A DNA stretch of 64,000 nt from Alphaproteobacteria bacterium (lineage in GTDB: Bacteria; Pseudomonadota; Alphaproteobacteria; TMED109). The notes below the pieces were generated by a model that was not told the DNA's origin, made no database searches, and saw nothing but the letters and a program-made list of their open reading frames with translations. Position numbers and translations under genes: made by a program. Positions 1,770-36,979 of the stretch are shown here, piece by piece. Position 1 is the first letter of the stretch, and each line of letters begins with the position of its first letter. The stretch is from NCBI GenBank assembly GCA_965221495.1, contig OZ244896.1, positions 2,225,471 through 2,289,470 on the forward strand, read 5' to 3'.

Positions 1770-3045
1770 CGCCCGCGGCGGCGAGTTTGACGCGGCCCTT
1801 GCGCCGCTCATGGCGGCGCGAAGTGCGAACGACGAGGCCGTGGCCAGCGCCGTCCGCGACATTATCGGCGCGGTCCGCGAACGCGGCGATGTGGCTGTCA
1901 TGGATTTCACGCGGCAATTCGACCGGTTCGCGATCGACGCCGAAGCGATTCGCGTCGGCCCCGATGCGCTCAAGACGGCCCGTGCCAACTGCGACCCGGA
2001 AGCCCTGCATGCGCTGACATTTGCCGCGGAACGGATTCGCGACTACCACGCCCGGCAGCTTCCCTCCGACATGTCCTATCGCGATGCCGAGGGGGTCACG
2101 CTTGGCGAAACGTGGACGCCGGTCAGGGCTGTAGGCCTGTATGTCCCGGGCGGCACGGCAAGTTATCCGAGTTCCGTGCTCATGAATGCCATTCCGGCCA
2201 AGGTCGCCGGCGTGCCGCGCCTGGCGGCGGTCATCCCCCACCCCGAGGGAGACGTGCAGCCTCTCGTGTTGGCTGCAGCCCAACTCGCGGGCATTGACGA
2301 GATCTACCGTGTCGGCGGCGCCCAGGCCGTGGCCGCCCTTGCCTACGGCACCGACGCGATCAAGCCCGTGGACAAGATCGTGGGGCCAGGCAACGCCTAC
2401 GTCGCCGAGGCCAAGCGCCAGGTATTCGGAACCGTCGGAATCGATCTGATCGCGGGTCCGAGCGAGATTCTGGTGGTAACCGACGCCGCCAGCGACCCGG
2501 ACTGGATCGCGCTGGATCTTCTGTCGCAGGCCGAGCACGACCCGGCCGCGCAAGCGGTGCTTGTCACGGACGACGAGGCGACCGCCACGGCCGTGGAGAG
2601 CGCGGTGGAACGGCGGCTGGCCGCGCTGCCGCGCCAGGCCATTGCGGGTGCGAGCTGGCGTGATTTCGGTGCGGTCGTCTTGGTGGCGTCGCTGGATGAC
2701 GCGCCCGCGGTGGTCAACCGCCTGGCACCTGAACATGTGGAACTCGCAATCGCCGATCCGGAAGCCATGCTGCCGCGGATTCAGACGGCGGGTGCAGTGT
2801 TTCTCGGCCGCTACACGCCCGAAGCCGTCGGCGATTACGTGGCCGGGCCCAGTCACGTCCTCCCGACTTCCCGCAGCGCGCGATTTTCTTCGGGGCTGAC
2901 GGTTCGCGACTTTATTCGCCGGACGTCCGTCGTTGGTTGCAGCGCCGACGGCCTCGCCGCCATCGGCCCCGCAGCGTCCGCACTGGCGGCGGCCGAGGGA
3001 CTGGACGCCCACCGCCTCTCCATCGATGTCCGACTCGGGCGCTGA
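1753..3045 (+). CDS. hisD: Histidinol dehydrogenase
   Basis: GLYVPGGTASYPSSVLMNAIPAKVAGV, IDLIAGPSEILV, SQAEHD and APEHVEL are HisD hallmarks. Start chosen at ATG 1753 (MALRIDARG). Confidence 0.95.
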   Translation: MALRIDARGGEFDAALAPLMAARSANDEAVASAVRDIIGAVRERGDVAVMDFTRQFDRFAIDAEAIRVGPDALKTARANCDPEALHALTFAAERIRDYHARQLPSDMSYRDAEGVTLGETWTPVRAVGLYVPGGTASYPSSVLMNAIPAKVAGVPRLAAVIPHPEGDVQPLVLAAAQLAGIDEIYRVGGAQAVAALAYGTDAIKPVDKIVGPGNAYVAEAKRQVFGTVGIDLIAGPSEILVVTDAASDPDWIALDLLSQAEHDPAAQAVLVTDDEATATAVESAVERRLAALPRQAIAGASWRDFGAVVLVASLDDAPAVVNRLAPEHVELAIADPEAMLPRIQTAGAVFLGRYTPEAVGDYVAGPSHVLPTSRSARFSSGLTVRDFIRRTSVVGCSADGLAAIGPAASALAAAEGLDAHRLSIDVRLGR

Positions 3046-3571
3046 AACCCAATGCCCGAACCGCCTCGTCGAGGTGGTACTGCAGGACACCGGGGGCGCG
3101 CAGGATCCCCCCGAGATCGCCCGCGAGCGGCAACTGGCGATCCAGAACTTGCTGGAATCCAACCGCTTCGCCCCGGTCGGTGCCGGACCCGGCCCGTATG
3201 CGGCCGTGGTGACACTTCAGGGTGAGCGGATGCTCTTCAACGTCAGCCCGCTGGAGACCGGGGCAAGCTCATTTCGGGTCGCCGTCCCGGTCGGCGATCT
3301 CACGCCGTTGGTGCGGGACTACCACGCCATTTGCCAGAGCTACTACCGTGCCCTGCAGCGTGCGTCGGTCACCAGGATTGAAGCCATCGACATGGGAAGA
3401 AGGGCCCTCCACGACGAGGGCGCGAGCCTGATGGCCGCGTGCCTGGAGGGCCGGGTGGGGACCGATTTCGACACCGCCCGCCGTCTCTTCACGCTTCTTG
3501 CCGTAATGCAGATGCGCAGCGACTCGCGGTTGGCGCCCGGCCGGCTATCGCCGGATCCGTCGACCCGCTAA
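3026..3571 (+). CDS. UPF0262-family protein
   Basis: 181-aa ORF starting MSDSGAE. The stretch RLVEVVLQD ... ERQLAIQNLLESNRF ... DYHAICQSYY resembles the UPF0262 family that follows hisD in alphaproteobacteria. Confidence 0.72.
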   Translation: MSDSGAETQCPNRLVEVVLQDTGGAQDPPEIARERQLAIQNLLESNRFAPVGAGPGPYAAVVTLQGERMLFNVSPLETGASSFRVAVPVGDLTPLVRDYHAICQSYYRALQRASVTRIEAIDMGRRALHDEGASLMAACLEGRVGTDFDTARRLFTLLAVMQMRSDSRLAPGRLSPDPSTR

Positions 3572-4840: not shown

Positions 4841-4916
4841 GCCCAGGTAGCTCAGTTGGTAGAGCACGCGACTGAAAATCGCGGTGTCGGTGGTTCAATT
4901 CCGCCCCTGGGCACCA
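4841..4916 (+). tRNA. tRNA-Phe (anticodon GAA), CCA encoded
   Basis: GCCCAGG/CCTGGGC acceptor stem, GCTC/GAGC D stem, CGCGA/TCGCG anticodon stem with loop CTGAAAA, GGTGG-TTCAATT-CCGCC T arm, then ACCA. Confidence 0.95.
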
Positions 4917-21452: not shown

Positions 21453-22742
21453 TCAGAACTGATAACCAACGCCAAAATTGAAGATCTTGTCGCTTGCCTT
21501 CCCGGGAGCATCAAGACTTTCGTAGTCTGCCTTGAGCACCGCGTTGGGGTGCAGCCAATAGTTCAATCCCACGACATACTGGCTGACTTCGGTGTCCGCA
21601 CTGTTGCCGGCATTGTTGTCGTAGGTCGAGTACCGTCCGAAGAGACCCACCGAACTCTGGCCTTCCAGCGCCATCCGTACCGAAGGTTCCACATACCAGC
21701 CAGTCTGCGAATCGCGGCCAATCGCTTCAGCGTCGGAACCGTCGATCGACCACGCCGCATAGAGAGCACGGAGCCCCAGCGACAGGGCGTTGCTCAACGG
21801 TCGGTTGATATCGGCATGGGCGACCCACAGCATCGCTGAGGCATCGTCCGTCGCGGAATCGCCCTGTGTCAGATCCGACTGATACTGAATTGTTCCGGCG
21901 AGTTCGATTCCGGGCATGCCCGTGTAACGAATCCGGGTCGTAAACGCCGGGCTGTCCAGCTCCGAGTTTGCGACTTTCTGCCGGCCGTCGCGCGGCTTGA
22001 AGCTGGTCGCAATCCCGTCGTCGTTCAACGCCCGAATCTTGGTGCCTCCAAGCCCCCCGTGCACGAGCGCGTCGACCTGGACGCCGCCCGCTGTGGTCAT
22101 GGTCCCGCCAAAGCCTCCTTCCCACCAAGTCGTGGGAATGATGTTTTTCTCAACAGGGTTGCGTTCAACACCATAGAACGTCGGCGGCTCGTGCACTTCA
22201 TTGAGGATTCCTACGGGAATCAGCACCACCCCAGCGCGGCCCGTGAGCGTGTCGCTCAAGTCATGCTCGATGTATGCCTGCTCTAGTTCGACCTCGCCCG
22301 GTTTGCCCTCGCCAGCCAGCGAATGCTCGAGTTCGAACTCCGAAAACATGCGTGTGGTGGCATTGAAATCGTGGCCGAAAAAGAGGACGTAGCGATGGAA
22401 ATCGAGCATGTCCTTCTTGCCCTCGACCCCACTGTTGAAGTGCAACTCTCCGTAGCCGCCCACCGATGTGCGCTCCCACCACCCGACTTTGGGTGCCTGG
22501 GCGTCCATGGAATCGGCCACCGCTTCGATCGCCTGGCTGGTCTCCACATCCCGGGTTTCGTTCTCAGCGACTCTCTGCTTCAGGGCGTCGATCTCTTGCT
22601 GCTGGTTCTGAATGATCTGCCACATGTCTTCCGGAGAAGGCAGTTCCTGGCCGAGAGCCGAGCCAATCGACATCGGAACGACCGCTGCGACGAACAGGGC
22701 GATCTTTCGAAACCTGCCGACTGGAAAGAACGGTTTGAGCAT
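21453..22742 (-). CDS. Outer-membrane porin-like beta-barrel protein with an N-terminal coiled-coil segment
   Basis: Signal peptide, QIIQNQQQEIDALKQRVAENE, alternating beta-strand pattern and a C-terminal FNFGVGYQF (terminal aromatic). AGGAG precedes ATG 22742. Confidence 0.75.
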   Translation of the reverse strand: MLKPFFPVGRFRKIALFVAAVVPMSIGSALGQELPSPEDMWQIIQNQQQEIDALKQRVAENETRDVETSQAIEAVADSMDAQAPKVGWWERTSVGGYGELHFNSGVEGKKDMLDFHRYVLFFGHDFNATTRMFSEFELEHSLAGEGKPGEVELEQAYIEHDLSDTLTGRAGVVLIPVGILNEVHEPPTFYGVERNPVEKNIIPTTWWEGGFGGTMTTAGGVQVDALVHGGLGGTKIRALNDDGIATSFKPRDGRQKVANSELDSPAFTTRIRYTGMPGIELAGTIQYQSDLTQGDSATDDASAMLWVAHADINRPLSNALSLGLRALYAAWSIDGSDAEAIGRDSQTGWYVEPSVRMALEGQSSVGLFGRYSTYDNNAGNSADTEVSQYVVGLNYWLHPNAVLKADYESLDAPGKASDKIFNFGVGYQF

Positions 22743-22762
22743 CGTGGGACTCCTAATTGCAA

Positions 22763-22824
22763 ATGCGAACTATTCGCATATTTGTCAGAATGCATGATCA
22801 TAAACGCGAATGCAAATCATTCGC
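22763..22824. promoter_or_regulatory. Operator-like region with two inverted repeats (ATGCGAA-CTA-TTCGCAT and GCGAATG-CAAAT-CATTCGC) upstream of the porin operon
   Basis: Both repeats are perfect (22763-22779 and 22806-22824), in an AT-rich leader 21-80 nt upstream of the porin start. The AATGC(A/G)A unit occurs three times. Confidence 0.4.
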
Positions 22825-23056
22825 ACATAATCGGGAAGTGTCTTTATCCGGCTAGGGAGCGGCCTGCCCGGCAACGATGCCCGTCGGTAGCACCGTGCGA
22901 CTCCAACCTCGGGAGCCCATTACGTCGCAGACCGATGCACCCGACCCAGGATCTCTCCTGCCCGCAGTAGCGGTTTCACGTTACCTCCGCATGACGTCCG
23001 TCAGGCAGGCGTGCTAAGGTCTATTTTGGAGTTGGACGCTTGCGTCCACCGCCAGT

Positions 23057-23360
23057 GCCGCCGTAGCTCAGTGGTAGAGCACACCCTTGGTAAGTACTTG
23101 CCTGCCCGGTGCGAAATCGCCGGGACTGAACCGCTCAAATTCGGGGAACGCTGCAGGCTGTGAAGCCGATGCCAATCCCGAGCCAAGCCTGCCTTTCCGG
23201 GCAGGAAGGTGTAGAGGCCAGACGGGCGGGACCCCCTAGGGGTCAAGGGATGGTCCGGACCACCAAACGCTGACAGCCCGCGCAGGAGCTGCCAGCGGCC
23301 GCGAAAGCGGCAGTGGTGCGAAGGGTGGGGTCGAGTGTTCAATTCACTCCGGCGGCACCA
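23057..23360 (+). tRNA. tRNA-Thr (anticodon GGU) interrupted by a group I intron; exons 23057-23091 and 23321-23360, CCA encoded
   Basis: The exons join into a canonical cloverleaf: acceptor GCCGCCG/CGGCGGC, D arm GCTC-AGTGGTA-GAGC, anticodon stem CACCC/GGGTG with loop TT-GGT-AA, T arm GAGTG-TTCAATT-CACTC, then ACCA. Confidence 0.85.
23092..23320 (+). ncRNA. Group I self-splicing intron (compact bacterial tRNA-intron type, IC3-like), 229 nt, no ORF
   Basis: The 5' exon ends in U (U36) and the intron ends in G (23320). Candidate IGS G23100-C-C pairs with G34-G35-U36, including a G.U wobble. Core strings TCAAATTCGGGGAA (23135-48), CGAGCCAAGC (23179-88), GGAAGGTGTAGAGGCCAGACGG (23204-) and CCAAACGCTG (23263-) closely match the Azoarcus tRNA-Ile intron core as I remember it. 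There is a P2 hairpin CCCGG/CCGGG and a GNRA hairpin GCCGC-GAAA-GCGGC. Confidence 0.85.
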
Positions 23361-23403
23361 TGATCCAGTGACGCTTCGGCGACCCGTTTCTGGGAGTGCG
23401 CGC

Positions 23404-24447
23404 GTGCCCGGACAAGACGTCCCGTTTGAAACCCAGATCAACAAGCTGTGGGGCCACATTCGCGGGCTGCACGTGCTCCATCTCATTCGCACAGGCGCTG
23501 ACCTTGGCTGGTTCCGGCAGCTCGCCGACGCCGGGCCTGAGGGTTTGACGCCGGAAGACCTCGCTGCCCCGCAGGGCCTGCACCTTCCCTATGTCAGAAT
23601 CTGGTGGAAGACCGCTATTGCATGGGAGCTTCTGGATCTCCTGCCTGATGGCAGGGCCCGCCTCGCACCGCACTTCGATTCGATCCTCGCGCGGCCCGGT
23701 GACCCGCGCTATCTCCTGCCCTACGTGATCGCCACCCTCGACCATTTCCAGCCCGATCTCGAAAGCCATGCAGGCGCAATGGCCAACGGTGCCACGCGGA
23801 CCTTCCAGGAGCATGGACACGCGTTTGCGGAGGCGATCGGCGACACCACCGCCGGCTTGCATGCGCTGATGGCGAGCCGGCTCCTGCCGGCGATCGAAGA
23901 AGTCCGGGGCGCCCTCGAAAACGGCGGCACGTTTCTCGATTACGGGTGCGGCGTGGGCGGTCTCGTGATCCGGGTCGCCAAGGCGTTTTCTGACGCCCGT
24001 TGTGCCGGCGTCGACATTCACAGCGAGGGCCTCGCGCAGGCGCGAGAGGCCGTGTCCGCTGCCGGACTTGACCCCCGCGTCACGATTCACGATGGCAACG
24101 ACTGGCGCGGTGACACCGCAAGCATCGACGTCATCGCAATGGTCGAGGTTCTGCACGAGATCCCCGAAACGGTACGCGGCGCGGCCCTTCAGGAGTGCCG
24201 GCGCCTCCTTCGGTCCGACGGACGCCTGGTGATTCTTGACGAAACGTTTCCCGAGGACAGCGATCTCCGCGCGCCCGAAGCTGCCCTCGCCGTCCAGACC
24301 CAGTTTAACGAAATGACCTGGGGCAACGTCGTGCCGACTGCGAAGGAACAGGAACAACTCGCAGCCGACGCCGGTCTCGCGATTCTTGACCGCAGCACCA
24401 TTGGTGGGATCTTTACCCAACTTATTCTGGCTCCGCTCGGAGAGTGA
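23404..24447 (+). CDS. Class I SAM-dependent methyltransferase with an N-terminal winged-helix/dimerisation-like domain (start uncertain: GTG 23368 or 23404)
   Basis: FLDYGCGVGGLVIRVA (motif I), DVIAMVEVLHEI and GRLVILDE. The ORF-track ATG at 23335 lies inside the tRNA 3' exon, so it was rejected. Confidence 0.72.
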   Translation: MPGQDVPFETQINKLWGHIRGLHVLHLIRTGADLGWFRQLADAGPEGLTPEDLAAPQGLHLPYVRIWWKTAIAWELLDLLPDGRARLAPHFDSILARPGDPRYLLPYVIATLDHFQPDLESHAGAMANGATRTFQEHGHAFAEAIGDTTAGLHALMASRLLPAIEEVRGALENGGTFLDYGCGVGGLVIRVAKAFSDARCAGVDIHSEGLAQAREAVSAAGLDPRVTIHDGNDWRGDTASIDVIAMVEVLHEIPETVRGAALQECRRLLRSDGRLVILDETFPEDSDLRAPEAALAVQTQFNEMTWGNVVPTAKEQEQLAADAGLAILDRSTIGGIFTQLILAPLGE

Positions 24448-36895: not shown

Positions 36896-36906
36896 CGCCC
36901 GTGCGG

Positions 36907-36979
36907 TGGGCCCGGCAGGACTCGAACCTGCAACCTAACCGTTATGAGCGGTCAGCTCTAACCATTGAGCTACGGGCCC
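36907..36979 (-). tRNA. tRNA with CAU anticodon (elongator Met, or Ile2 if lysidine-modified); CCA not fully encoded
   Basis: The reverse complement reads GGGCCCGTAGCTCAATGGTTAGAGCTGACCGCTCATAACGGTTAGGTTGCAGGTTCGAGTCCTGCCGGGCCCA. G1-C72 is paired and there is no GGG/CCC anticodon stem, so it is not an initiator. Confidence 0.85.

Follow-up and report, generated by a model that had tools for sequence, protein, structure and literature searches.

The 64,000-nt stretch analysed here (the window; contig OZ244896.1 of the alphaproteobacterial assembly GCA_965221495.1) carries at 23057-23360 what is very probably, judging from its sequence, a tRNA-Thr(GGU) gene with a spliced group I intron of subgroup IC3. 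Once joined, the two exons (GCCGCCGTAGCTCAGTGGTAGAGCACACCCTTGGT and AAGGGTGGGGTCGAGTGTTCAATTCACTCCGGCGGCACCA) give a flawless 75-nt cloverleaf with the anticodon loop UU-GGU-AA, and the 229-nt insert sits between U36 and A37. When introns are allowed, ARAGORN calls tRNA-Thr(ggt) i(36,229) at 23057-23360. The exon and intron coordinates had been proposed by an earlier sequence-only reading of the window, made without database searches, and they proved exact by sequence check, by this ARAGORN call and by the cloverleaf. The same reading was also right in noting that the insert follows a U (U23091) and ends in G (G23320), and that a guide, G23100-C-C, pairs with G34-G35-U36 through a U36·G23100 wobble.

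Because GGT is followed by AA and exon 2 also opens with AA, the splice boundary is formally ambiguous by up to 2 bases. We have set it between a U and the first intron base on one side and after a G on the other, since this is the only solution obeying the group I rule, and the predicted exon junction after intron removal is ...CCCUUGGU followed by AAGGG.... An identical copy of the locus is present on an independent ENA metagenome contig, where no gene has been called over it, and no Pfam match was found in the open reading frames (ORFs) overlapping the locus on either strand.

The insert is homologous to known tRNA group I introns. A covariance model constructed exclusively from 20 tRNA-Arg(CCU) intron cores, from P3 to P7', recognizes the window at 23129-23257 with 93.4 bits (E = 3.5e-20) as its sole match in the 64 kb, the Arg(CCU) set having been chosen using two motifs shared with the window. 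The insert also shares 72% identity, over 175-193 nt, with tRNA-Leu(UAA) introns of proteobacteria (BLAST E = 3.7e-21; L122 and L209 in our numbering of loci). The single-sequence fold (-146.1 kcal/mol, z = -3.1) recovers the tRNA arms, P1, P2, P3, P4-P5, P6, P8 and P9. The cloverleaf, the U·G pair, the terminal G, the covariation of the core helices, P3 and P7 included, described below and the score of the Arg model bear out the previous proposal of a compact, ORF-less IC3 group I intron inserted after U36.

The split gene belongs to a family. We have scanned one genome per species for CCTTGGT, GAGCCAAGC and AAGGTGYAGAG, in this order and with variable gaps, and the scan yielded 118 loci, 103 of which contain the same split tRNA-Thr(GGU) gene: 92 were called by ARAGORN as tRNA-Thr(GGU) interrupted by an intron at this same site, and manual inspection added seven complete and four truncated genes. 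Intron length varies between 193 and 293 nt among the 93 ARAGORN-mapped genes (the 92 loci plus the window). The carriers are nearly all Alphaproteobacteria, namely Hyphomicrobiaceae, Rhodoplanes and other Xanthobacteraceae, Acetobacteraceae, Rhodobacterales, SAR116, Micavibrio and Rhodospirillales, and cultured ones include Roseicella frigidaeris, Siccirubricoccus sp. G192, Paracraurococcus ruber, Pseudaestuariivita rosea and Alkalilacustris brevis. Four carriers (L124, L135, L197 and L210) are labelled as Bacillaceae, Chloroflexia, Bryobacterales or Acidimicrobiia metagenome-assembled genomes (MAGs); the flanks of L197 align with the alphaproteobacterial clade of the window, which suggests that the odd labels reflect mis-binned contigs rather than a wide host range. 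Of the remaining 15 of the 118 loci, one has a host with a CAU anticodon and the rest hold introns of tRNA-Leu(UAA), most of them cyanobacterial.

To this family we have applied a comparative analysis, aligning 93 precursors with MAFFT without fitting them to any structure and projecting the helix model on the alignment. The tRNA stems, anticodon stem included, are canonical in all 93 sequences and show compensatory changes, and G1-C72 and C2-G71 are invariant, indicating that the gene is under selection as a tRNA. Within the intron, P2, P3, P5, P6a, P7, P8, P9 and P9b show compensatory changes with the pairing kept. A formal covariation count was made on 35 diverse sequences and 68 pairs, with 500 shuffles and slid controls. 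The proportion of paired cells was 91.1%, against 77.6% after shuffling (sd 0.5), two-sided changes affected 46 of the 68 pairs, against 30.7, and the covariation score was 0.360, against 0.138. None of the 500 shuffles reached the observed values, and the slid controls stayed at or below 0.089.

The helix model of the window, derived from the Rfam alignment and the single-sequence fold, is detailed in Table 1. In P1, U23091 immediately precedes the 5' splice site and forms a pair with G23100; across the homologues this U·G pair is found in 92 of 93 sequences, both G-C pairs in 93 and the A-U pair in 91. In the precursor, intron A1-A2 is paired with the UU at 23098-23099, which can afterwards pair with the AA at the start of the 3' exon. 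All seven pairs of P2 show two-sided changes. P3 has 100% of its cells paired, five pairs being canonical in 93/93 with CG, GC, UA and UG seen, and four of five pairs are compensatory. P4, within the J3/4-to-J5/4 stretch (23137-23181), is 99% paired among homologues, a P5 pair is CG in 56 sequences and GC in 34, P6 is invariant and P6a is compensatory in six of its seven pairs. P7, the expected site of guanosine binding, is 99.4% paired, with one pair being CG in 67 sequences and UA in 26, and another one AU in 82, GC in 7 and UA in 3. P9 and P9b have a compensatory change in each of their five pairs, and a U-A pair of P9a in the window is C-G in relatives. The periphery contains no P5abc and has GAAA loops in L2 and L9b, the latter belonging to the terminal GNRA hairpin that had already been noticed in the sequence-only reading. 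The four core strings quoted in that reading are all present, but three of them carried the wrong helix labels: CGAGCCAAGC corresponds to P4'/P6 and not to P6/P3', GGAAGGTGTAGAGGCCAGACGG to P6'-J6/7-P7-J7/3-P3' and not to P8-P7, and CAAACGCTG sits in the P9 junction, the true P7' being the 3' strand of P7 listed in Table 1.

Table 1. Elements of the split tRNA-Thr(GGU) gene and of its intron (positions in the window).
Element	Position	Strand	Description
tRNA-Thr(GGU) exon 1	23057..23091	+	acceptor 5' strand, D arm, anticodon-stem 5' strand, loop to U36
Intron insert	23092..23320	+	229 nt, between U36 and A37
P1	23089-23093 / 23098-23102	+	GGUAA/UUGCC, loop GUAC; exon G34-G35-U36 plus intron A1-A2
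P10 (plausible)	UU 23098-23099 plus C23097, with 3' exon AAG	+	inferred from sequence
P2	23105-23124	+	CCCGGUG/CGCCGGG, loop CGAAAU (GAAA-type), 23112-23117
P3	23131-23136 / 23224-23229	+	CCGCUC / GGGCGG; closes the P3/P7 pseudoknot
J3/4 and P4	23141-23146 / 23176-23181	+	J3/4 AAAU; P4 UCGGGG/UCCCGA; J4/5 AAC; J5/4 CAA
P5-P5a	23150-23172	+	GUGA loop; internal loop UGCA/GAU; from the Rfam and Arg-model alignments
P6 and P6a	23182-23210	+	P6 GC/GU; P6a hairpin CCUGCCU-UUCC-GGGCAGG
J6/7, P7 5' strand and J7/3	23211-23223	+	GUAGA; GGCCA (23216-23220); GAC
P8	23231-23243	+	5-bp hairpin ACCCC-CUA-GGGGU; outer three pairs covary
J8/7 and P7 3' strand	23244-23255	+	CAAGGGA; UGGUC (23251-23255)
P9 domain	23259-23317	+	P9 ACCAC/GUGGU; P9a CGCUG...CAGCG with inner hairpin
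P9b	23298-23311	+	GCCGC-GAAA-GCGGC, terminal GNRA hairpin
Omega G	23320	+	3' splice site next; G ends 93/93 introns; AAGGG then follows
tRNA-Thr(GGU) exon 2	23321..23360	+	from A37 on: 3' strand of the anticodon stem, variable loop, T arm, 3' strand of the acceptor, discriminator A, encoded CCA

The window intron is part of a remodelled clade. The species of the window is absent from the representative-genome set, and the nearest introns found in this set are 84-87% identical (L203, L131, L225, L169, L141 and others; L195, L197, L144, L171 and L237 are also relatives in the clade). The order porin (21453-22742, minus strand in the window), tRNA and methyltransferase (23404-24447) is kept in the clade, and identity is 86-88% for the tRNA with its intron and 66-76% for the flanks, which points to vertical inheritance and to an RNA more constrained than the neighbouring genes. 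P8 is reduced in the clade to a 15-nt hairpin, a short form present in 14 of 89 homologues, whereas among the 75 relatives whose P8 is long, 67 have a CCUAAG-like motif in its 5' half. The clade has lost the receptor motifs of the CCUAAG/UAUGG type, which are retained in P8 and P5 of most Thr(GGU) introns, and its L2 is CGAAAU or AGAAAU instead of the usual GGAAAC. Its P9 region reaches 64-66 nt, compared with a mean of 47 nt, and includes an extra covarying P9a hairpin (23264-23297 in the window). This clade is a natural test case for the extent to which the IC3 periphery can be remodelled, and it offers ribozyme studies a natural variant lacking the usual receptors.

If the intron follows the established group I pathway, from which the mechanism proposed here is taken, the anticodon G34-G35-U36 would pair with the guide G-C-C (23100-23102) to form P1 with its U36·G23100 wobble, and the P3-P8 and P4-P6 domains, joined by the P3/P7 pseudoknot, would build the active site, with the guanosine pocket in P7. 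A free guanosine would then attack after U36. The terminal G23320 would next enter the pocket, and the AAG of the 3' exon would form P10 with the nucleotides immediately 5' of the guide, a step that the anticodon stem may aid, as it would already hold the exons together. Finally, U36 would attack after G23320, releasing the intron and a mature tRNA-Thr(GGU) able to read ACC and ACU. We infer that the RNA is catalytic in this way and may be self-sufficient without protein.

Several observations weigh against the assignment to a working group I intron. The RF00028 search that had been suggested as a check gave a divided answer. At the gathering threshold Rfam reports no RF00028 intron in the whole window, where it returns only two ordinary tRNAs; on a 501-nt stretch RF00028 aligns end to end from P1 to P7' with E = 3.7e-4, but the score of 24.4 bits is below the cut-off of 50. 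In addition, the columns of the search pattern (CCTTGGT, GAGCCAAGC and AAGGTGYAGAG) are invariant by construction and provide no evidence, although CAAAUUCGGGGAA, AAGGGAU and GGUCC are nearly invariant too and lie outside the pattern. The exon-guide pairing is just 3 bp. P8 has no tetraloop-receptor motif and the P5 internal loop UGCA/GAU is not the canonical 11-nt receptor, so that the folding of this receptor-poor clade could be weaker or could need help. As for the score, a SAR116 Thr member with a more AT-rich sequence (L138) attains 60.6 bits, above the cut-off, and a cyanobacterial tRNA-Leu(UAA) intron (L182) attains 61 bits, whereas a proteobacterial tRNA-Leu(UAA) intron (L122, from plasmid pCTX-M3) remains sub-threshold at 36.8 bits. 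Since L138 passes and a long-known Leu type also falls short, the low score of the window is due to the Rfam model and not to the sequence, and sub-threshold scores are normal for GC-rich bacterial members. According to a preprint by K. P. Williams (bioRxiv 2020, 10.1101/2020.01.27.920355), the RF00028 seed does not contain any bacterial sequence. That the locus is a chance resemblance, i.e., an unrelated structured insert, or an assembly artefact in which tRNA halves were joined chimerically, has nothing in its favour except this Rfam score; the same arrangement occurs in the independent ENA assembly and in 103 genomes, the model that gave E = 3.5e-20 was built from a different host family and the pseudoknotted core covaries, and this explanation is effectively refuted.

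The same score, together with the possibility of a second copy elsewhere, since our view is limited to 64 kb, could be used to argue that the intron has decayed in a dead tRNA gene and that another gene supplies tRNA-Thr(GGU). We consider this highly improbable, given that strong purifying selection, accompanied by compensatory changes across 93 sequences, acts on both exons and intron, that the locus is more conserved than the adjacent protein genes and that no intact tRNA-Thr was found in the window or in the 118 fetched loci. It is also unlikely, although less so, that a real group I intron is present here that does not splice unaided in the cell, requiring a protein or RNA chaperone because its peripheral contacts have been eroded. 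The short P8 without its motif, the non-canonical P5 loop and the deviating L2 would fit this idea, and many group I introns need cofactors in vivo, according to reviews as quoted in PMC7717549. Nevertheless, the catalytic core is intact and highly conserved, the losses may be offset by the extra hairpin in P9a and by the conserved GAAA of L9b, and the Bartonella Arg(CCU) intron (PMC7717549) and the Azoarcus intron (PMC13168695) self-splice in vitro.

As regards the role of the tRNA, threonine is encoded in 14 high-GC3 ORFs of the window by ACC (47.9%), ACG (39.0%), ACA (7.7%) and ACT (5.5%). ACC is thus the main threonine codon, as had been anticipated before this analysis, and tRNA-Thr(GGU) would read about 53% of the threonine codons (ACC plus ACU). 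Considering typical bacterial tRNA sets, the split gene is putatively the sole tRNA-Thr(GGU) copy, in which case translation would depend on splicing. A bolder proposal is that the remodelled intron, having lost both receptors and expanded P9a, resides in the clade of the window in the only tRNA-Thr(GGU) gene, as a regulatory checkpoint rather than as a neutral passenger, with splicing gating the tRNA supply; we regard it as improbable, but if true, the efficiency of splicing would depend on guanosine nucleotide, Mg2+ or a chaperone.

The host and the insertion site are already catalogued, computationally, in a preprint, and the window intron is a new, somewhat remodelled member of this type. 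The catalogue of Williams (bioRxiv 2020, 10.1101/2020.01.27.920355) expands the four classical host types to 21, includes Rba53.Thr.5Ug in its seed alignment, with P1 ggUA/UGcc, and reports no splicing experiment. The statement of the sequence-only reading that no Thr(GGU) host was known is therefore wrong. Reviews and databases to 2021 list only Leu(UAA), fMet(CAU), Ile2(CAU) and Arg(CCU) as hosts, and a Thr host was absent from the literature found by targeted searching, the preprint having surfaced on a broader search. The Thr.5Ug type has in common with the window the tRNA-Thr GGU host, site 5 after the third anticodon base, U-1, the terminal G and the IC3 core. Its seed member is our locus L206, from a Rhizobiales MAG (100% identity over 225 nt), which is in one alignment with the window and shares its clade in the tree. 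The window is only 67% identical to this seed, however, and its sub-clade is distinguished by the minimal P8, the altered L2 and P5 loop and the longer P9a.

We have compared the Thr introns with Arg(CCU) introns in a neighbor-joining tree, which is rough and has no bootstrap, and which was read by bipartitions since midpoint rooting is misleading. In this tree 80 Thr introns form one pure clade, and 86 of 96 form a nearly pure clade of their own apart from the Arg(CCU) introns. Over 180 conserved columns, the mean identity is 59% between Thr and Arg(CCU) introns and 73% within the Thr set. The Thr introns appear as a lineage of their own beside those of Arg(CCU), Ile(CAU) and Leu(UAA), which fits the old idea of ribozymes moving between anticodon loops. 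For specialists this will be no surprise, the type being already in a public preprint.

Among the known systems, the Arg(CCU) intron is found in the same bacterial class and shares the 36/37 site after a U, the AAG of the 3' exon, a compact IC3 structure and GAAA loops in P2 and P9, but it differs in the host tRNA and in the guide, which is GGG for CCU instead of the GCC for GGU of the window. This intron was reportedly described in Agrobacterium tumefaciens by Reinhold-Hurek and Shub in 1992, and in Alphaproteobacteria, it is said, by Paquin and coworkers in 1999. A metagenome scan in which CTCCT replaced CCTTGGT revealed at least 62 tRNA-Arg(CCU) genes split at 36/37 among the 120 matches listed (L241-L360), so these split genes are very common among the metagenome matches listed. 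A subgroup of them has the 5' end TGGGGCTGT..., no encoded CCA in the ARAGORN call and introns of 201-394 nt. The BbgpI Arg(CCU) intron of Bartonella bacilliformis undergoes splicing in vivo as well as self-splicing in vitro (PMC7717549).

The Azoarcus intron resembles that of the window in being an anticodon-loop IC3 intron that follows the third base of the anticodon and has an exon-guide helix of 3 bp, P2-P9 and no P5abc, and differs from it in its host, the Ile2(CAU) tRNA of a betaproteobacterium, and in its length, the window intron being 24 nt longer, mainly in P9a. The motifs AAAUUCGG, GAGCCAAGC and AAGGUGUAGAG-C-AGACGG are presumably shared by both introns. In Azoarcus, L9 and L2 presumably have canonical 11-nt receptors, in P5 and P8, whereas the window has neither. 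The tRNA-Ile(CAU) intron of Azoarcus sp. BH72 is 205 nt long, and its crystal and cryo-EM structures are available (PMC13168695). Some Thr members of 193-200 nt are below this 205-nt minimal model, a fact of interest for ribozyme work; several of the shortest Thr(GGU) introns, of only 193-199 nt, are those of L123, L138, L160, L191, L224 and others, found in Magnetovibrio and SAR116 MAGs, among others.

The Leu(UAA) intron of cyanobacteria, plastids and proteobacteria has the same IC3 core and differs in its U34/A35 site and in the isotype of its host. It was reportedly described by Xu and coworkers and by Kuhsel and coworkers, both in 1990. Burkholderia tRNA-Leu(UAA) intron cases are recorded in tRNADB-CE (PMC2686568). 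An alphaproteobacterial Leu(UAA) intron (L209) was also caught by our Thr-directed pattern, as was the host with the CAU anticodon (L133; CAIUZV010000243.1, a betaproteobacterial MAG), because CCTTGGT is present inside the P1-P2 region of both. The sequence of L133 runs ...GACTCAT at the end of the exon and GGCGTAAG... from there on, corresponding to an Azoarcus-like Ile2/Met type.

Genes of this kind are overlooked by standard tools. Both ARAGORN without the intron option and the Rfam cut-off missed the gene of the window; in the former case, only a tRNA-Phe (4841-4916) and a tRNA-Met (36905-36979) were called in the whole window. According to its own paper, tRNAscan-SE 2.0 is not designed to detect group I introns. 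Since split genes are missed by such tools, carrier genomes will seem to be without tRNA-Thr(GGU). Other weak Rfam matches, i.e., Plastid-ycf2, YrlA, pRNA and mir-9198, were discarded, being far below their cut-offs and explained by the T arm or by GC-rich hairpins.

In the surroundings of the gene, a scan of 22700-23500 for promoter and terminator consensus found nothing, a scan that is uninformative for an alphaproteobacterium. A GC-rich hairpin, GGACGC-TT-GCGTCC (23033-23046), is located 10 nt upstream of the 5' end of the tRNA and could be a processing or termination signal for the upstream region.

Split tRNA genes are also found on plasmids and, judging from ARAGORN calls, on viral contigs. 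The plasmid pCTX-M3 (L122; NC_004464.2) contains at 2955-3253 a tRNA-Leu(UAA) gene in which U34 is followed by a 213-nt group I intron, which is about 77% identical to the window intron over 127 nt, and 1280 PLSDB records carry such an intron, among them resistance plasmids of Enterobacterial, Acinetobacter, Aeromonas and Vibrio origin. In pCTX-M3, the one record inspected, the split Leu gene adjoins an AAA-ATPase gene and aac(3)-IId, and the locus is without a feature in the PLSDB table, which leaves out RNA genes. A host-agnostic IC3 core pattern matched more than 120 IMG/VR viral contigs (L002-L121), often inside tRNA gene clusters. ARAGORN isotypes are unreliable where the intron sits elsewhere in the loop, as when the Leu(UAA) gene of the plasmid is called 'Stop(tta)', and its calls for the viral hosts are approximate; besides Leu(UAA) they comprise Arg(UCU), Pro(UGG), Lys(CUU/UUU), Met(CAU) and Thr(UGU) (L060, L118). 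Among the viral matches listed, 38 loci are without a tRNA call, and some introns measure 162-187 nt.

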